From Patescibacteria group bacterium (lineage in GTDB: Bacteria > Patescibacteriota > Kazan-3B-28 > UBA10110), in the NCBI GenBank assembly GCA_043802665.1, contig JAZDKW010000010.1, forward strand, positions 4,024 through 68,023: a stretch of 64,000 nucleotides of DNA. Direction: 5' to 3'. A program made the position numbers and the translations under genes. Positions 640 through 55,392 of this stretch are shown in pieces (within the stretch, counting starts at the first letter, position 1; each line of letters opens with the position of its first letter). The notes beneath the pieces are model-generated. The model was not told where the DNA came from. It was given only the letters and a program-made list of their open reading frames with translations, and did not search any database.

Positions 640-2157
640 TTACTCTAAATAATCTTTTAATTTTTTGCTATCTTTAGACTTCTTCAATTTAGCAAGGGCC
701 TTGGCTTCAATTTGACGAATACGTTCACGGGTAACTCCAAACTCCCTGCCTACCTCTTCCAAAGTATGCGCCCATTCCCCATCCAAACCAAAGCGCATCT
801 TTAGGATCCTTTGCTCCCGAGGAGTTAGCAGATGCAAGACAGTGCTGATATCTGATTTCAATAGATCCTGGGCTGATTGTTCGTCTGGTGTCAAACTATC
901 CTCGTCTTTGATGAAGTCACCCAATAAACTATCGTCCTCGTCACCAACAGATTTCTCCAACGATACAGTCTCCTGCGAAATCTTGAGGATATGATTAACC
1001 TTTTCTATCTCCAAACCCATTTCGTTAGCGATCTCTTCCGGCGAAGGCGGCCGACCTAATTCTTGCACCAATTGCCGTTGGGTGCGCGCCAACCGATTCA
1101 TCGTTTCAACCATATGCACCGGGATGCGAATCGTTCGAGCTTGATCGGCAATCGCCCGCGTAATCGCTTGCTTAATCCACCAGGTAGCATAAGTCGAAAA
1201 CTTAAAACCACGTTTGTAATCAAATTTGTCTACTGCCTTCATTAGACCGATGTTCCCCTCCTGAATCAAATCCAAGAGTGACAATCCGCGACCAATATAT
1301 TTCTTGGCGATGCTCACAACCAAACGCAAGTTAGCCTCCGCCAACTGCTTCGCCGCCATTTTATCACCGGCGGCCACACGCTTGGCTAACGCCACCTCTT
1401 CTGGTTTCTTCAACAGCGCAATCTGCCCGATCTCCTTAAGATACATCCTGACGGAATCTTCCCCGATTGCTTCCGTAGACTCCTCTGCACTCAAGCCTTT
1501 TTTGGTGGGCTTTTTGCTTTTTTTAACCTTCTTTGTCGCCACATCCGATGCACCCGTTTGCCAGATCAAATCCTCTCGCAGATCCACTACTTCGATACTT
1601 AGATCAAAGAAGGCTTCATATAATCTATCCAGCAGTTCAATGTTGTGCTCTGCATCTGGAACAGCTTGATTAAGTTCCTGCTGGGTAATAAAATTCTGAT
1701 CTTGCCCTTTTAGTAACAAGAACTCTACCTCGGACGGAAAATGGTACTTCTTTATCCGGTCCTTGAAACTTCTAACATCATCGAGTTCGTCTACTAATTC
1801 CAGCTCGGGCTCTTGCCCTTCTGTTCCAACAACCTTGGCTTCTATTTCCTCTGTCTTCGTTGTGGAGGCAAGTTCTTGGGATACATTTTTCTTTCGGGCC
1901 ACCTTTAGATTGCCGAATGGCCCCCGCAAAAGTGCGGTGGCAGTTTTTTTGGCCACTTTTTTTACTCGGCCCAGGCCCAGAGCCGCTTTTTTCACTTGCT
2001 TGGCCGGCTTCTTTGCCGACTTAGTCGCCTTCTTGGCTAACTTGACCTTCTTTTTCAAAGGCCGAAGTTGGCGCTTTTGCGCCTTATCACGAGTTTTTTT
2101 GCCCCGCCCAGTTGACCGGGAACGGGTCCCTTTGGTCAGGGATTTTTTCTTTGCCAT
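640..2157 (-). CDS. rpoD: RNA polymerase sigma-70 factor RpoD with a roughly 150-aa Lys-rich N-terminal extension.
   Basis: Regions 2, 3 and 4 of sigma-70 are recognisable: [16 protein letters not shown] and [27 protein letters not shown]. Confidence 0.92.
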
Positions 2158-2172
2158 ATGCTAATAGAATAA

Positions 2173-3954
2173 TTAAAATTGTCGGTTAAATTCCTCTAAA
2201 AGCTCTTTGAGTTTGACAGCGTTACCCGCTATCTCCGCCTCATTAATCTGGAGATTCAGATTGGCCATAGCTTGCCGCACCGAGCGTTGTTTCAATAAAT
2301 TGACGTAAAATTTCAGCTCCTGCGCCACCTCATCCGGTGGCATCTCGGCATAATATTCCTCAACCATTACCAGCATTTCCAGAAGGTCTACTTTGTCTTG
2401 GTACTCTAATTGTTCAATAAACCCGTCTAAGGAAAATTCTTTCCCAGTATAGCAATTTTTTAGCTCTGCGTAAACTTTTTTGCTTAGCGCATCGGGCCAA
2501 GTTACCTGATCTAAAGTTTCTTTAATCTCCTCTAATTGTTTTGGGCTGAAAACTAACATCCCTATAATCCGCCGTTCCAGCCAATCCGCCCTCTCCGTCG
2601 GCTTAGCCACCTCGTTTGGCATCACTCCGGACCGTTGAAAAGCCTTGCCAGGCCGCTCTCGTCTGATTCCTCCTCCTGGCCTGCGCTTAGCCTCTAATCC
2701 TTTTAGTGCCTCATACAAATTGGCCTGACTAACATCCAATGCCGACGACAGTTTTTTCACATATTGATCCTTCTCCACTGGGCTGGCTAACAGATTAATA
2801 GTCGGCAAAACCTCGGCCGCCACCTTTTTTTTGTCATTCACTGAAGACAAGCCGTATTTCTTAACAGCATAATCAATATAAAAATCCACGATCGGTACAG
2901 CCGCCTCCACTACCGCTCGCCATTTGGCCGGATCGGCCTTAGCGCATTCATCTGGATCTTTATATCCTTCTTCCAGAATTGCTACTTTAATCTCCAGATC
3001 ACTTTGCGAAGCTAATTCAATCGCCCGCTTGGTCGCTTCACTTCCCGCTCCATCCGCATCTAACGCTAAAATTAAAGTTTCGGCATAACGGCGAATCGTT
3101 TCTAATTGCTCCACGGTTAACGCTGTACCGGAAGAAGCCACCACATTCTGCACTCCAGCCTGATAAGACGACAGGGCATCCATTTGCCCTTCCACCAACA
3201 CTGCCGCTTTCTTTTCTTGAATCGCCTCCTTGGTAACAGATAAACCGTACAAAATTCTGCCCTTGTTAAAGAGGGGTGTTTCGGGAGAATTTAGATACTT
3301 GGGCTGATCCTTAGAATCCAACACCCGCCCCGTAAATCCAACCACCTTGCCACTGATGTCTGCGATCGGGAATATTAGACGGTGACGGAATTTATCTACC
3401 ACGTTGCCCCCTCGCCGAGACAGTAACCCTGCTTTTTCGCTATCTTCGCGGGTATAACCCCGTCGCGTCAGAAATTTAGCTAAATAATCCCATCCTGCCG
3501 GTGCATAACCCAGACGAAACTTCTTAGCCGTTTCTGCCGATAGTCCCCGATTAACCAAATAATTCATCGCTTGCCGCCCAGCGGTGCTATCTACCATATA
3601 TTTACCGAAAAACTTGGCCGCCAGCTCGTTAATAGCAAAGAGTTTGCTTTTTATCCCCCAATCCCTCGGCCGAGTTTTGAGTTCTACCCCAACCCGTTCC
3701 GCCAGTTGTGAAAGAGCTTCACCAAACTCTAACCCCTCTTTTTTCATCAAAAAACCAAAGACGTCTCCCCCAGCCCCACATCCAAAACAGTGCCAGATTT
3801 GCTTATCCGGGCTCACAATGAGCGAAGGGTCTTTATCTCCGTGAAATGGGCAAACCGCCCGAAAATTCCTTCCGGCCTTTTTCAAGGGTAAATATTGCCC
3901 AACAAACTCGACAATATCTACCTTGGCTTTGATCTCGTCTAACTGATCCATCAC
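2173..3954 (-). CDS. dnaG: DNA primase DnaG.
   Basis: Zinc-ribbon CPFHGDKDPSLIV…WHCFGCGAGGD and TOPRIM EGQMDALS; sits in the conserved dnaG-rpoD arrangement. Confidence 0.92.
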   Translation of the reverse strand: MMDQLDEIKAKVDIVEFVGQYLPLKKAGRNFRAVCPFHGDKDPSLIVSPDKQIWHCFGCGAGGDVFGFLMKKEGLEFGEALSQLAERVGVELKTRPRDWGIKSKLFAINELAAKFFGKYMVDSTAGRQAMNYLVNRGLSAETAKKFRLGYAPAGWDYLAKFLTRRGYTREDSEKAGLLSRRGGNVVDKFRHRLIFPIADISGKVVGFTGRVLDSKDQPKYLNSPETPLFNKGRILYGLSVTKEAIQEKKAAVLVEGQMDALSSYQAGVQNVVASSGTALTVEQLETIRRYAETLILALDADGAGSEATKRAIELASQSDLEIKVAILEEGYKDPDECAKADPAKWRAVVEAAVPIVDFYIDYAVKKYGLSSVNDKKKVAAEVLPTINLLASPVEKDQYVKKLSSALDVSQANLYEALKGLEAKRRPGGGIRRERPGKAFQRSGVMPNEVAKPTERADWLERRIIGMLVFSPKQLEEIKETLDQVTWPDALSKKVYAELKNCYTGKEFSLDGFIEQLEYQDKVDLLEMLVMVEEYYAEMPPDEVAQELKFYVNLLKQRSVRQAMANLNLQINEAEIAGNAVKLKELLEEFNRQF

Positions 3955-11541: not shown

Positions 11542-11655
11542 CAATCCGAAAGGGTCGCTTCTGCGGGCGGGTGGAAGGGGGGTCTGGGGGGAATTCCGCC
11601 CGCCCTACAAATTTTGGGCGAAATCGGTTCGAATTTTTTCGAACGCACACCGCCA
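11542..11655. repeat. IR-a right copy (114 bp) ending in CCGCCA.
   Basis: Identical to the reverse complement of 10270..10383. Confidence 0.85.
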
Positions 11656-11656
11656 A

Positions 11657-11736
11657 TTGGGAAATGTCTTTGTTGGCTCGCCCTCTGCGAGGGCTCGCCA
11701 GCCGATTTTAAGCGCAAATCGGAATTTTTTATCTTT
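11657..11736. repeat. IR-b left copy (80 bp).
   Basis: Identical to the reverse complement of 13169..13248. Including CCGCCA, the match is 87 bp with one mismatch. Confidence 0.85.
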
Positions 11737-11806
11737 GCCCCGCTACTGCGGGGCTGGTCAAAAGCGGGCTTCCCGAATTTTCATTTTTAATTTTTAAGGA
11801 GAAACC

Positions 11807-13435
<1,629 letters not shown>

Positions 13436-14067
13436 ACGAACCAAAAATATTCAAATAAGAAATCACGCTTGGAACGCTGTATAAATAGATTCTTCTCCCT
13501 TCATCGGTGATGTGCGGATTTATCCCGACTTCCTTTAGGATCTTCGCTGTGGAAATAATCAGTTTTTTAGAAGAATTGGTGAAACAGAAACCAATATTAT
13601 GGTATGGCGCATTCCTTACAATATGGTTATGTATGAATAAGCAGCCATCTGTATCCACACATCCTCTGACAAATGCTTTCTGGTATTCAGGATTGTCATT
13701 TATCCATTTTGGAATATCAATTTGTTGAACAACTTTGTTCCCCCTTACTGCACCTTTACCGACTAGAAAATCTAATAGGTTGCTCCCCGAACAAATAAGA
13801 ACTAACGCATTTTGATTAGGCCTTTTTCTAATATACACGTTGATCTCAAATAATTTTCTTAAGAGTCTGTCAATGTACTGCGAATATTCCAGATCAGAAT
13901 TAGAGTTGAGGGTAATGACAAGTTGCCAATCATTGTTTATTCCTCCGTCACCAAAAATAATCCCAAATAATTCTGCCAGTTCCTTTGATTCGTTAGGAAT
14001 ATTAACAATTTTTCTGTGGCTTTTCTTAGGATATTTTAGTAACGAATAATCCATTGTTTAATAAATT

Positions 14068-18599: not shown

Positions 18600-18794
18600 C
18601 CCTGCGTCGTCATGCTAAATTTACGTGTCCCGCGTATGCTGGGATTTCAGCATCTCCAGGGGAAAGATCCTGAATCAATCCGCTAGCTGGCGGACAGGAT
18701 AACGGGAGGGGTGGTTCCCGCCATCGCCGAAAGGCTTCTGTCTTCGCATTAGCTACGCCGGACAGGATGGCCGGGCTTCGCAGGATGACAGCTT

Positions 18795-37354: not shown

Positions 37355-37397
37355 GCGGGAGATTTTCCATTTTGGTGGACCGTACCGGATGATTTTC
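37355..37397. repeat. Direct duplicate of the tRNA-Ala 3' end plus part of its downstream hairpin (19 bp exact TGGTGGACCGTACCGGAT).
   Basis: Identical to 37537..37555; flanks GGGAGATTTTCCATTTTGG versus GGGGAGTTTTTCATTCTGG. Confidence 0.6.
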
Positions 37398-37502
37398 CCT
37401 GCTGCTGCAGGGGCCCTTCGTTCGCCGCAATAAGGAAAGACACATACATATAAAGCAGCTCACGGACGAACCTCTCCCCGGTTTTCATCTGCACTATCAC
37501 CA

Positions 37503-37536
37503 GAATGAAAATCTCCCGTCGGGGAGTTTTTCATTC
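37503..37536. terminator. Perfect hairpin immediately 3' of tRNA-Ala.
   Basis: GAATGAAAATCTCCCGtcGGGGAGTTTTTCATTC. Confidence 0.5.
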
Positions 37537-37613
37537 TGGTGGACCGTACCGGATTCGAACCGGTGACCTCTACGATGCCATCGTAGCGCTCTACCAAGCT
37601 AAGCTAACGGCCC
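37537..37613 (-). tRNA. tRNA-Ala (anticodon GGC) with the G3:U70 identity pair.
   Basis: Manual fold: GGGCCGT/ACGGTCC acceptor, D-arm GCTT…GAGC, anticodon stem CTACG/CGTAG with loop ATGGCAT, T-arm ACCGGTTCGAATCCGGT, ACCA. Confidence 0.82.
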
Positions 37614-54382: not shown

Positions 54383-54613
54383 TTAAAAATGTTTCTTCAA
54401 AAATGCCCGACCAGAACCTGACTTAAAATACTTTTCTAATTCAAAAGCTTTATATTTGTCTTGAAGCGCTATATAAAAACAAAGTTTTACTGGTAAACGG
54501 TCTTTGGTTGCTGAAACATAGCCTTTTCGATGTCTATTGACTCTATCTTTCAAGTCATCAGTGCAACCTATATAATAACCTTCTCGACATTTCAGCGAAT
54601 AAATATAATACAT
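54383..54613 (-). CDS. Small GIY-YIG nuclease (UPF0213-like), copy 1.
   Basis: MYYIYSLKCREGYYIGCTDDLKDRVNRHRKG. Confidence 0.7.
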   Translation of the reverse strand: MYYIYSLKCREGYYIGCTDDLKDRVNRHRKGYVSATKDRLPVKLCFYIALQDKYKAFELEKYFKSGSGRAFLKKHF

Positions 54614-54644
54614 AATCTGCTATGGTAGCCCGCTTTCATTCGTC

Positions 54645-54718
54645 TCTGGCGAACTTCGTCACGCCGTAGGCCCTGACTTCGTCCAGCCGAAAGCGGACTT
54701 CGTCACGCCGTAGCCGAG
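54645..54718. repeat. Three tandem units of about 22 bp, (G)ACTTCGTC(A/C)(C/A)GCCG(T/A)A…, just 3' of tRNA-Ser(TGA).
   Basis: GAACTTCGTCACGCCGTAGGCC / TGACTTCGTCCAGCCGAAAGC / GGACTTCGTCACGCCGTAGCCG. Confidence 0.55.
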
Positions 54719-54732
54719 CTCCAGCGAGGCGA

Positions 54733-54824: not shown

Positions 54825-54845
54825 ATATAGAGCCAAGTGCGGTTA

Positions 54846-54938
54846 TGGCGGTGAGGGAGGGATTCGAACCCTCGCGGGGAATTGCTTCCCCCTACCGGTT
54901 TAGCAAACCAGCCCCTTCAGCCTCTTGGGTACCTCACC
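54846..54938 (-). tRNA. tRNA-Ser (anticodon GCT).
   Basis: GGTGAGG-TA-CCC-AAGAGGCTGAA-GGG-G-CTGGT-TTGCTAA-ACCGG-[variable hairpin]-GAGGGTTCGAATCCCTC-CCTCACC-GCCA. Confidence 0.85.
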
Positions 54939-54958
54939 ATCATAACCGCACTTAGTAA

Positions 54959-55198
54959 TTATTTTAATCTACGATGCAAATCTTTGTGCCCATCGCTGGA
55001 CTTCAAGAACCTTTCTCTTCTCTGAGCTATCAGTTTATCTTGGTAGGCTTCATAGCAAACCAACACAAACGGGATTCTATATTTAGTAGATGTTACTTTG
55101 CCGGCTTGATGCTCAGCAAATCTTGATTTTAAATTATCGGTTGAGCCAATGTAATATTTACCATCTTTGTTACTTTTTAGCACATAGACATAATGCAT
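54959..55198 (-). CDS. Small GIY-YIG nuclease (UPF0213-like), copy 2.
   Basis: MHYVYVLKSNKDGKYYIGSTDNLKSRFAEHQAGK. Confidence 0.7.
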   Translation of the reverse strand: MHYVYVLKSNKDGKYYIGSTDNLKSRFAEHQAGKVTSTKYRIPFVLVCYEAYQDKLIAQRRERFLKSSDGHKDLHRRLK

Positions 55199-55239
55199 GG
55201 ATATATTTTATTAAAGGATTCGCCCTAAATTCTCAGGGC

Positions 55240-55392
55240 GCCCCGCCTGCCCCGCGTATGCTGGGGCGAATGCCGGGGCGAACCCTCGCGGGGAATTGCT
55301 TCCCCCTACCGGTTTAGCAAACCAGCCCCTTCACGTCCTGCGTATGCGGGACAGCCTCTTGCCCCACATGCACGGGGTGCAGGTACCTCACC
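55240..55392 (-). pseudogene. Degenerate copy of tRNA-Ser(GCT): a 53-nt identical core with two roughly 20-nt GC hairpins inserted in the D-arm and the 3' T-loop/acceptor replaced by a third hairpin.
   Basis: 55281..55333 matches 54865..54917 exactly; insertions CGTCCTGCGTATGCGGGACA and CCCCACATGCACGGGGTGCA; the 3' end is replaced by …CCCCGCGTATGCTGGGG…. Confidence 0.45.

Follow-up and report, generated by a model that had tools for sequence, protein, structure and literature searches.

Palindromic hairpin units in a truncated tRNA-Ser(GCT) copy beside a GIY-YIG nuclease gene of a Patescibacteria bacterium

In a 64,000-nt stretch of DNA from a CPR/Patescibacteria bacterium, the whole of which is called the window here, a copy of tRNA-Ser(GCT) is broken up by short GC-rich hairpins. 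This raises the question of what the copy is and how the hairpins came to lie in it. Our analysis revealed that a small selfish cassette occupies the tRNA-Ser(GCT) gene and that the region forms its upstream edge; in this cassette, a truncated tRNA copy, hairpins, a 79-aa GIY-YIG ORF and the intact tRNA follow one another on the minus strand.

The truncated tRNA copy and the nuclease cassette

The locus comprises the following features.

55216..55392, minus strand: truncated tRNA-Ser(GCT) duplicate, delimited by alignment to the intact gene, BLAST and the shared upstream flank
54959..55198, minus strand: 79-aa GIY-YIG nuclease ORF of the Slx1/YhbQ/UPF0213 type (Pfam PF01541, E = 1.2e-14)
54943..54953, minus strand: left arm AAGTGCGGTTA of an inverted repeat of 11 bp, an extension of the intact tRNA's acceptor stem
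54846..54938, minus strand: intact tRNA-Ser(GCT), directly downstream of the nuclease ORF (ARAGORN and Rfam, 54.6 bits)
54835..54845, minus strand: right arm TAACCGCACTT of the inverted repeat, based on the same fold and covariation as the left arm

The dead copy spans tRNA-Ser(GCT) positions 1 to about 62, with hairpin DNA intervening at three places, and its approximately 81 tRNA-derived bases carry no substitution in the alignment with the intact gene (54846..54938). Positions 1–11 (55382..55392), the D-loop piece CAAGAGGCTG (55352..55361) and the AATCC of the T-loop (55216..55220, positions 58–62) are each identical to the intact gene, and a 55-nt block at 55279..55333 is 100% identical to 54865..54919 (BLAST, 55/55). 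The initial annotation had reported a tRNA-identical segment at 55281..55333, which is real and sits within this block; the three hairpin interruptions that it described are equally real, at 55362..55381, 55332..55351 and in the T-loop block 55221..55278. It had considered the copy a tRNA-Ser(GCT) paralog. The copy is indeed a non-functional derivative of this tRNA, but not an independent one: it arose by duplication of the gene's 5′ part, and it borders the nuclease cassette. The cassette itself had gone unnoticed. Searches of 55216..55392 with ARAGORN and Rfam gave no match, even at E <= 1. The copy has no 3′ acceptor strand, and past AATCC the sequence is that of the ORF leader.

The partial tRNA direct repeats flank DNA that is missing from related genomes (L138, L131 and L109). 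The cassette-free loci L138 and L131 have a single intact tRNA, and they share neighboring genes with the cassette locus, namely a 700-aa gene upstream and a second nuclease, with 93% identity, downstream. The flank GAAGGC(C)GTT..ACGT stands directly before the single intact tRNA in cassette-free L138 and L109, and before the partial copy in L008, L147 and the window. The upstream dead duplicate is the original 5′ part of the tRNA gene (positions 1–62), left behind, and the intact copy directly 3′ of the ORF means that the host keeps its tRNA. The same layout recurs: in 31 of 91 assessable related ORFs, a 5′ partial copy precedes the ORF and the matching intact tRNA follows it, and eight show the mirror layout, a 3′ partial copy with the double hairpin in its T-loop (L046, L148 and L039), placing the hairpins downstream of the ORF. 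The related ORFs with the cassette layout come mostly from Patescibacteria MAGs, and the cassette loci involve 11 tRNA isotypes, Ser, Tyr, Leu, Gln, Trp, His and Pro among them. ORF-less derivatives also occur: in L016, repeats of about 95 nt, each consisting of a 3′ tRNA fragment with hairpins in its T-loop, lie two in tandem after one tRNA and singly after another. In L003, the two tRNA copies differ in the acceptor stem.

It is highly improbable that the copy is an interrupted yet functional tRNA gene, with the hairpins as introns of the archaeal bulge-helix-bulge or self-splicing kind, or that it is one half of a split tRNA. The insertions of about 20 nt are clean, lie at or near loops and leave the exonic parts 100% conserved, as such a reading would expect, but the 3′ exon is missing and AATCC runs into the ORF, which contradicts archaeal-type introns and split tRNAs. 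Furthermore, an intact tRNA-Ser(GCT) lies about 300 nt downstream, the genome is bacterial (tRNA-Arg(ACG), EF-P, CPR relatives), the insertions are absent from relatives, and neither group I nor group II intron models match; a group I intron was likewise rejected.

The 79-aa ORF encodes a catalytic domain and nothing else. A profile of the family matches PDB 1zg2 (E = 2e-15), 1ywl and SLX1, and the Tyr, Arg, His and Glu columns are invariant in an alignment of 22 homologues. Weak matches to TIGR01453 and to PHROG homing-endonuclease families cover the N-terminal 30–40 residues. The protein has no separate DNA-binding domain of the I-TevI type, its best structural relatives being UPF0213 and SLX1, and no Rfam intron family match places it in a self-splicing intron or intein. 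Between the tRNA repeats there is no tyrosine or serine integrase, and this protein is the sole ORF; a reading as an integrase att site was rejected. The PADLOC anti-phage models gave marginal matches only (E ~1e-3, 15 bits), and the defence-system and phage libraries nothing specific for this nuclease. An exact protein look-up returned no record; the relatives were reached through homologues, and the genome scan for related nucleases used a seven-sequence alignment.

The fold of 54830..54960, comprising the intact tRNA and the inverted repeat, has z = -6.1. The arms of the repeat covary (GTGCGGTTA/TAACCGCAC in the window, GGTTCTGGCTC/GAGCCAGAACC in L124 and CGATTCGGGCTC/GAGCCCGAATCG in L008), and in cassette-free L146 a related sequence, TAATCACACTT, is still present behind the tRNA. 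The T-arm of the tRNA-Ser reads GGGTTCGAATCCC, and the intact gene, like all other tRNA genes, keeps an uninterrupted TTCGAA.

The hairpin units and their distribution

The hairpin units of the window are as follows.

55362..55381, minus strand: U1 (sense TGCACCCCGTGCATGTGGGG, 20 nt), 5′ D-loop edge
55332..55351, minus strand: U2 (sense TCCCGCATACGCAGGACGTG), 3′ D-loop edge
55241..55278, minus strand: hp1, first hairpin of the T-loop double hairpin, directly after TTCG (tRNA position 57), split by U3
55246..55266, minus strand: U3, 21 nt, sense CCCCAGCATACGCGGGGCAGG, nested in the hp1 loop directly after an internal TTCG
55223..55238, minus strand: hp2, CCCTGAGAATTTAGGG, second hairpin of the pair, conserved in L001, L003 and L124
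18628..18644, plus strand: orphan unit TCCCGCGTATGCTGGGA, 28 nt past the ychF stop codon, between convergent genes

The units are palindromes of 16–21 nt, located at loop-coding tRNA positions or in the loop of an earlier unit. They form a family with the stem GCCCNGC and a four-base loop GNAT or its complement ATNC, and occur in both orientations: U1 (plus-strand sequence CCCCACATGCACGGGGTGCA) has orientation 'R' with a GNAT-type loop (GCAT), and U2 (plus-strand sequence CACGTCCTGCGTATGCGGGA) has orientation 'F' with the loop ATAC. TTCG^AA is the typical point at which the double hairpin enters the T-loop of the dead copy, each GC-rich hairpin being followed by CG; in the window, hp2 passes through CG into AATCC, and the T-loop block (55221..55278) includes CCCCGCGTATGCTGGGG at 55250..55266. 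In addition to this basic pair, the window contains three more units, of which two lie at the edges of the D-loop and the third inside hp1. The DNA fold of the split hp1 has an energy of -15.3 kcal/mol (z = -2.9), and that of hp2 reaches z = -2.65. The D-loop hairpins, taken singly, fold no better than shuffles (-3.6 and -4.1 kcal/mol as DNA, z ~0), and their grouping in the family is based on sequence resemblance and cross-genome comparison, not on folding energy. One possible reading of U2 is an 18-nt unit with a duplicated TG. A 2-nt duplication (CG, TG or CA) fits five insertions, though not those in the anticodon loop (L016) or U1 of the window, and is a mere hint of a target duplication.

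The T-loop hairpin pair is conserved across cassettes in different tRNAs and is an ancestral hallmark of the cassette family, rather than the product of a recent invasion. The hp1 hairpin is uninterrupted in L001, L124, L003, L010 and others, U3 being missing from it in L001 and L124. The D-loop sites are empty in L001 and L124, whose nucleases are 97% and 86% identical, and filled at 80–82% nuclease identity in L008, L147 and L002, as they are in the window. At the U1 site, L008 and L147 have a unit and L002 has two in tandem; U2 has orthologues in L008 (TCCCACATTCGCAGGACTTG) and L147, and in L002 its loop lies in the opposite orientation. Elsewhere, L008 has a nested unit in the hp2 loop, analogous to U3, and L147 has an hp2-like unit copied into the variable-arm loop. 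The behavior of the units is insertion-like, since their number differs between close relatives. The pattern of presence at 80–82% and absence at 86–97% identity can alternatively result from an old insertion that was later erased when the intact copy acted as donor in gene conversion, which would imply less mobility than the pattern suggests. An origin of the palindromes in an assembly or amplification artefact is extremely improbable: amplified DNA can give rise to short palindromes, but related units recur at the same sites in five assemblies that different projects produced independently (the window, L002 from Logan, L008 from a MAG, and L147 and L001 from ENA), and this candidate was rejected on that recurrence.

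The hairpins had initially been attributed to a family of miniature palindromic insertion elements. They do form one GC-hairpin family that occurs elsewhere, in both orientations and in numbers that vary among close relatives, and the distant hairpin TCCCGCGTATGCTGGGA behind ychF exists, 7 nt away from the position first given. This orphan agrees with U3 at 15 of 17 bases; a larger imperfect hairpin with the orphan at its tip has no significant predicted fold (z = -0.75). The pattern CCCNGCGTATGCNGGG, with <=2 mismatches, gave five matches on four sites in the window, compared with a mean of 0.22 in shuffles, none of 100 of which reached five. That 64 kb contain just a single orphan also counts against the explanation favored below.

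An independent genome-wide palindromic family of the REP/MITE kind, served by another enzyme and accumulating in a neutral pseudogene with the nuclease irrelevant, would be in keeping with the orphan, which is far from any GIY-YIG gene, with a hairpin of the same stem and another loop at 11737..11754, and with the tolerance of dead DNA to insertions. We regard such a family as unlikely. Of the five units in the window, four cluster within 150 bp, and the T-loop pair is kept across cassettes in different tRNAs. Over 87 loci, 21 of 59 matches to the core motif fall within 100 nt upstream of the nuclease start codon, against an expectation of about one, and perfect GC-rich hairpins are eightfold enriched just upstream of GIY-YIG start codons, in many genomes. 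Conversely, the motif was not found in 319 kb around cassette-free tRNA-Ser genes, and the T-loop double hairpin occurs in ~319 kb of tRNA-Ser loci only at L124, which bears a cassette. The window also shows neither the many dispersed extragenic copies nor the conserved head tetranucleotide of REP/BIME, no shared head being evident. The single orphan and the enrichment before nuclease start codons speak against a general dispersed REP/MITE-like family.

Selection on the stems and the proposed mechanism

The stems of the hairpins are kept by compensatory changes. In 32 hairpins with 18 distinct arms, 95% of the positions pair, compared with 68% after arm swapping. Pairs were counted on hand-parsed hairpins, as MAFFT put the 6- and 7-bp stems out of register; G-T and A-C pairs numbered 11 and 5 in one count and 5 and 4 in another, the latter favoring neither strand. 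Such counts are too weak to assign a strand and indicate only the absence of an RNA signature. The dyad symmetry of the module, moreover, gives the same reading on both strands.

These data bear on a function at the RNA level, which we consider doubtful. The truncated tRNA and its hairpins would then form a structured leader, a tRNA-like fold with extra arms, that controls the processing, stability or translation of the nuclease mRNA and the release of the downstream tRNA from a common transcript; the hairpins would sit in loops because only there is the fold spared. In the window, the module does lie between the native upstream flank of the tRNA and the ORF, with no convincing promoter or terminator predicted inside it, its stems are maintained by compensatory change, all insertions avoid most tRNA stems, the T-stem is still able to pair in RNA (AATCCUUU with GAGGG), and the covarying 11-bp extension of the intact acceptor stem resembles an RNA processing helix. 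However, a single transcript contains units in both orientations, the loop of one orthologous unit is flipped, G-U pairs are not in excess over A-C pairs (5 versus 4), and the module is dyad-symmetric. The mirror layout puts the same double hairpin downstream of the ORF, nearly identical cassettes exist with or without D-loop units, ORF-less copies exist, and Rfam gives no match. The evidence thus weighs against the tRNA-derived structured RNA that had been offered as one reading of the copy.

We therefore favor, with some confidence, the explanation that the hairpins are palindromic units that duplicate as DNA and are tied to the nuclease cassette, with an involvement of the nuclease and a protective role that we infer. 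The units may multiply as DNA, a neighboring unit being copied into a break, and their association with the adjacent structure-specific nuclease suggests that this enzyme could make the breaks. GIY-YIG enzymes typically leave a 2-nt stagger, with which several of the insertions would be consistent. The net effect may serve the cassette: with the units in place, the conserved T-loop site would be lost and the homology of the dead copy broken into pieces, making this copy harder to cut, or to recombine with the intact copy and delete the nuclease gene. Since the intact tRNA keeps its uninterrupted TTCGAA, a simple model of a T-loop homing site fails to explain the immunity of the cell. Protection from recombination would also be weak in the window, because 53–55 nt of perfect homology remain after the first 21 nt have been broken up. 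L001 and L124 lack D-loop units, a further counterpoint to the favored explanation.

A bolder and rather speculative version is a two-part mobile system, in which a Slx1-like GIY-YIG nuclease of ~80 aa and its own 16–21-nt palindromic units jointly colonize tRNA genes. Cuts by the nuclease would fall in loop-coding DNA at sites of the YG^AA type, the universal T-loop TTCG^AA among them, and the units would be copied into the breaks. Cassettes might spread between genomes by homology-driven repair, with the duplicated tRNA segment as a homology arm, and the ORF-less 95-nt derivatives could be non-autonomous passengers. Should this hold, these would be the smallest nuclease-plus-repeat elements known and an unrecognized source of tRNA gene turnover in CPR bacteria.

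Relation to known systems and significance

A search of the literature on GIY-YIG proteins together with tRNA, CPR, UPF0213, YhbQ and COG2827 returned no published description of this arrangement of tRNA copy, hairpins and GIY-YIG gene. The arrangement explains a class of tRNA gene fragments that annotation pipelines miss or miscall. It also indicates that the stand-alone GIY-YIG genes of CPR and some other lineages (Smithella, Omnitrophota) are not randomly scattered but belong to a cassette that recurs together with a duplicated stretch of tRNA. Lineages exchange tRNA segments through the cassettes, and the differing acceptor stems in L003 suggest that the cassettes may drive the evolution of tRNA genes in very small genomes.

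Fungal mitochondria (for example, Allomyces atp6) and phages (the seg/mob genes) have free-standing GIY-YIG homing endonuclease genes, which enter a host gene and duplicate a part of that gene. Our cassette resembles them in having a selfish nuclease ORF in or beside a conserved gene, a duplicated gene segment that preserves host function, and a presence that varies among related genomes. It differs in that its nuclease lacks a DNA-binding domain and its target is a bacterial tRNA gene. In several fungal mitochondrial genome papers, homing endonucleases and gene duplications are mentioned together.

Mobile elements that integrate into tRNA genes leave partial tRNA copies as att-site duplications (Williams 2002; reviewed in PMC9897764). 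The break points in the anticodon loop or T-loop are alike in both cases. Here, in contrast, the insert is only ~300 bp and encodes no integrase, only the 79-aa GIY-YIG nuclease, the 5′ part is duplicated instead of the usual 3′ part, and the partial copy has hairpin modules exactly at the T-loop break.

In proteobacteria, REP/BIME sequences are extragenic imperfect palindromes in pairs of opposite orientation, which are thought to move as single-stranded hairpins with RAYT transposases. The units described here are likewise short, imperfect, extragenic and paired in opposite orientation, but they lack a conserved GTAG-type head, have a very low copy number in the window and are associated with a GIY-YIG nuclease, not a Y1 transposase.

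We know of no established function for the bacterial stand-alone Slx1/YhbQ-type GIY-YIG proteins. SLX1 cuts branched and stem-loop DNA (PMC1564403), and this activity would suit hairpin or cruciform substrates, by analogy, since the window protein falls by sequence in the same branch as SLX1 and the UPF0213/YhbQ stand-alone domains treated in that paper. No link of stand-alone GIY-YIG domains to tRNA gene duplications or hairpin repeats is reported in PMC1564403. Our findings offer a testable role for these bacterial nucleases, with T-loop TTCGAA DNA and small hairpin or cruciform modules as predicted substrates.

As for the ultra-short GC palindromes of mitochondria, there is to our knowledge no settled mechanism for the spread of GC clusters and double-hairpin elements. 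They include the yeast GC clusters, the ultra-short invasive elements (MUSEs) of Podospora, Neurospora PstI palindromes flanking tRNA genes and Allomyces double-hairpin elements (cited in PMC7218506, references 24 and 27–30 therein). They share with our units the form of 20–80-nt GC-rich hairpins in an AT-richer genome, optional between close relatives, in both orientations, often nested or in tandem, near tRNA genes and endonuclease ORFs, some being double hairpins. The units belong with them as a functional class, not by homology: both are short GC-rich hairpins, optional, in either orientation, nested or tandem. The mitochondrial elements are organellar and have no sequence relationship to our units, which are tied to one ORF family and a fixed T-loop position. 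If the units are indeed copied by nuclease-induced repair, they would represent a bacterial counterpart of the mitochondrial GC clusters and double-hairpin elements.

A tRNA-Ser(GCT) copy interrupted by hairpins

The initial annotation described an interrupted copy of tRNA-Ser(GCT), and sequence identity to the intact gene proved the description correct. The features of the locus all lie on the minus strand and are listed in order from 55392 downwards.

Features of the window locus
begins 55392, minus: tRNA-Ser(GCT) positions 1-11, GGTGAGGTACC
minus: U1, a 20-nt hairpin insert after position 11, TGCACCCCGTGCATGTGGGG
minus: D-loop piece between U1 and U2, CAAGAGGCTG
minus: U2, a second 20-nt insert, TCCCGCATACGCAGGACGTG
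minus: 53 bases identical to the tRNA, comprising the remaining D-arm and the anticodon, variable and T-arm regions to TTCG (position 57)
minus: 58-nt GC-rich block after TTCG
minus: AATCC, tRNA positions 58-62, after the GC-rich block
minus: 17 A/T-rich bases between AATCC and the nuclease ATG
55198..54959, minus: 79-aa nuclease ORF
54938..54846, minus: intact tRNA-Ser(GCT), starting 20 bases past the nuclease stop codon
54613..54383, minus: second small GIY-YIG ORF, preceded by tRNA-Ser(UGA), both downstream of the intact tRNA-Ser(GCT)

The upstream copy shows zero substitutions relative to the intact tRNA-Ser(GCT) across its tRNA-derived parts, lacks the 3' acceptor strand, and is not called a tRNA by ARAGORN or Rfam. 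Introns or a split tRNA were ruled out because the 3' exon is missing, and an artefact was excluded because the same feature recurs in five independent assemblies. An 11-bp inverted repeat (54835..54845 and 54943..54953) extends the acceptor stem of the intact tRNA-Ser(GCT). Its arms covary among the related loci L124, L008 and L102, a remnant of the right arm is retained in the cassette-free locus L146, and the repeat could be an RNA processing helix or a piece of the cassette end.

Both small ORFs encode the GIY-YIG catalytic domain alone (PF01541). The family profile matches the UPF0213 structures 1zg2 and 1ywl, followed by the structure-specific endonuclease SLX1, while NCBIfam, PHROGs and PADLOC gave merely weak homing-endonuclease-like matches. 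Given that the nuclease homologues come chiefly from metagenome-assembled genomes (MAGs) of Patescibacteria/CPR, and that the window carries tRNA-Arg(ACG) and EF-P, the host is a CPR bacterium and not an archaeon. The second ORF, behind tRNA-Ser(UGA) (region 54383..54732, minus; 76 aa), is 43% identical to the first, and its GC-rich leader consists of units bounded by GACGAAGT. This leader is ~45 nt longer in the window than in the close relative L138, and thus it also gains or loses short units.

Recurrence and optional presence of the cassette

The cassette, composed of a truncated tRNA copy, hairpins, a domain-only nuclease ORF and an intact tRNA, recurs widely. We fetched 87 loci with nuclease relatives, and 3 more later, in which 91 ORFs were assessable. 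For 31 of these ORFs, a same-strand tRNA lies at most ~140 nt downstream and a partial 5' copy of the same tRNA, often 100% identical to it, precedes the start codon; eight of the 91 have the mirror layout, in which the intact tRNA is followed by the ORF and then by a 3' partial copy. The host tRNA is most commonly Ser, and otherwise Tyr, Leu, Gln, Trp, His, Pro, Gly, Cys, Ala or Glu. Inspection by eye of 20 loci with the window layout revealed that one or two GC-rich hairpins almost always interrupt or end the partial copy, after which a few further tRNA bases resume. The hairpins are located in the T-loop at positions 57/58 in Ser and Tyr (TTCG / hairpin CG hairpin CG / AATCC), in the anticodon loop in some tRNA-Ser(UGA), and in the D-arm near position 12 in Gln, Leu and Pro. 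In mirror-layout loci (L046, L039, L148), it is the downstream 3' fragment whose T-loop is split by this double hairpin.

Inverted repeats of 10-19 bp bracket about 19 of the 91 ORFs. Many related GIY-YIG ORFs away from tRNAs (L023, L031, L036, L040-L042, L053, L056, L061, L064, L084, L086 (~position 1501)) have such repeats tightly on either side, for example CCCCGTTAGAGAT ... ATCTCTAACGGGG. The repeat-bracketed ORFs, placed as if in a hairpin loop, may represent a second insertion mode of the nuclease family.

The cassette is not always present. A metagenome scan that took the anticodon arm of the window tRNA-Ser(GCT) as the query returned 59 loci, the majority of them plain tRNA genes. In two loci, L138 and L131, a single intact tRNA-Ser(GCT) without the first cassette lies between the window's neighbours, with the 700-aa gene on the upstream side and, on the downstream side, the second nuclease at 93% identity. 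The flank GAAGGCCGTTCCGAC.. directly adjoins the intact tRNA in L138 and L109, and the partial copy in L008, L147 and, in a diverged version, the window. Since cassette-free intact tRNAs share this flank, the upstream copy is the original 5' part of the tRNA gene. In the locus L003, the two tRNA copies differ in the acceptor stem (GGAGAGG versus GGTGGGA), and past the intact tRNA sits a matching 3' remnant. The landing of a cassette with its own tRNA in a resident tRNA would leave such a pattern. Three other loci, L146, L110 and L117, look like deletion derivatives. Between tRNA-Ser(GCU) and tRNA-Ser(UGA), the cassette-free L138 carries a different GIY-YIG ORF, also small (1079..1430), whose own leader is rich in hairpins; the tRNA cluster is apparently a hotspot for small GIY-YIG genes.

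Elsewhere in the window, 87-nt inverted repeats that are 99% identical (11650..11736 and 13169..13255) bracket a large ORF for a serine recombinase (11807..13435; Resolvase, Recombinase and zinc-ribbon domains). tRNA-Ser(GGA) meets the right arm with its 3' end, the left arm is preceded by a degenerate 3' piece of a tRNA, and the region 11650..13435 may be an element that has integrated or can invert. The leader of the recombinase gene includes the hairpin GCCCCGC-TACT-GCGGGGC (11737..11754), with the stem of the unit family and another loop. The end of a LAGLIDADG-domain ORF (13317..14054, minus) overlaps the 5' end of tRNA-Ser(GGA), placing another homing-endonuclease-type gene immediately upstream of a tRNA-Ser in the same genome. 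Near tRNA-Ala(GGC) (37373..37613, minus), an exact 18-nt copy of its 3' end occurs ~147 nt downstream, preceded by GGTTCG and ~80 nt of unrelated sequence including a GC hairpin. By its appearance this is a split T-arm fragment of a broadly similar type, without an ORF.

The hairpin family and its variable units

The canonical unit is GCCCNGC-GNAT-GCN'GGGC, with a 6-7-bp stem and a four-base loop. Units occur in both orientations, R (canonical) and F (its complement, loop ATNC), and the T-loop module has the order F, CG, R, CG, so that its dyad symmetry makes it read alike on both strands. Among 32 hairpins, whose arms comprise 18 different sequences, pairing in the outer six positions reaches 95%, versus 68% (maximum 78%) in a swapped-arm control, which shows selection on the hairpin structure. 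G-T mispairs (5) are as rare as A-C mispairs (4) and thus do not point to either transcribed strand as the functional one. The core GCGTATGC also lies within the variable arm GGGGGGCGTATGCTCCC of tRNA-Ser(GCT) in L089, L091, L096 and seven more loci, probably by coincidence.

The hairpin motif pointed out initially has five matches against 0.22 expected by chance, far above it. In folding energy, neither of the two D-loop hairpins stands out when considered by itself. The distant hairpin, an orphan behind ychF, exists, although at 18628..18644, 7 nt from the coordinates first assigned. The initial interpretation is supported in part: the hairpins do form a family of variable unit number, but one tied to the cassette. 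The single orphan and the enrichment at nuclease start codons make a general REP-like family of dispersed elements improbable: 21 of 59 core-motif matches fall within 100 nt before one, and perfect GC hairpins are 8x enriched in that stretch. True T-loop double hairpins were found in cassette loci only.

We compared the unit states of the closest relatives by manual alignment.

Unit states, with nuclease identity to the window
L001, 97%: upstream copy uninterrupted; basic T-loop pair only
L124, 86%: upstream copy uninterrupted; basic T-loop pair only
window: U1, U2, and a third unit (U3) in the loop of the first T-loop hairpin (hp1), directly behind its internal TTCG
L008, 82%: D-loop units at both sites; one further unit inside the second hairpin (hp2), at CG^AAT; hp1 with an 81-nt insert
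L147, 80%: D-loop units at both sites; variable-arm loop with an hp2-like unit
L002, 80%: first site with two units in tandem, second site with one unit whose loop is flipped; remaining copy deleted

All insertions are found inside loops or at loop edges, whether in the tRNA or in an older unit, mostly at G^AA or similar sites. Several can be read as 18 nt plus a duplicated dinucleotide (CG, TG, CA), a pattern that not all fit. The loop variant GTAT is common to U2, U3 and the orphan of the window, whereas the orthologous U2 of L008 and L147 has GAAT, a hint of copying within the genome.

Another possibility would be that the hairpin-bearing copy is a structured RNA leader. The stems covary, the insertions spare the tRNA fold, and the covarying extension of the intact acceptor stem suggests RNA processing. 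However, a leader is difficult to reconcile with units in both orientations, the symmetric module, the mirror layout, the ORF-less copies, and the dispensability of the D-loop units in L001 and L124. L016, a Syntrophaceae MAG, has ORF-less repeats of ~95 nt (1857..2300): a tandem pair follows tRNA-Ser(UGA) and a single repeat follows tRNA-Ser(GCU). These candidate non-autonomous derivatives are 3' tRNA fragments with T-loop hairpins, in which a spacer leads into the T-arm 5' strand, two hairpins come next, and AATCC, the acceptor 3' strand and CCA close the repeat.

A possible mechanism and known parallels

We infer that the units may multiply at the DNA level through templated repair of breaks, which the adjacent nuclease, of a structure-specific type, would cut. 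For the cassette, the gain would be that the units abolish both the conserved T-loop site and the dead copy's homology, resulting in less self-cleavage and less deletion through recombination between direct repeats. The weak points of this model are that TTCGAA is kept in the intact tRNA, that 53-55 nt of homology remain in the window, and that the patchy D-loop units could descend from one old insertion, erased in some lineages via gene conversion from the intact copy.

As a dead tRNA fragment adjoining a selfish gene, the feature is nothing unusual; at the same time it gives a glimpse of a cassette architecture that is widespread, apparently undescribed and accompanied by very small palindromes of a dynamic family. 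Our literature search, of incomplete coverage, found no description of the arrangement, which may have been described elsewhere, and the GIY-YIG superfamily paper does not mention it. Near parallels are provided by the free-standing GIY-YIG homing genes of fungal mitochondria, which duplicate part of the invaded gene, and by REP/BIME elements. Integrated elements with partial tRNA copies at their ends (PMC9897764) also come close, as do the ultra-short GC palindromes and the double-hairpin elements known from mitochondria (in works referenced in PMC7218506) and the bacterial stand-alone Slx1-like GIY-YIG domains (PMC1564403). None of these five brings together all that distinguishes the cassette, namely a nuclease that is a single domain, the duplication of a tRNA segment, and a double hairpin at a fixed place in the T-loop.
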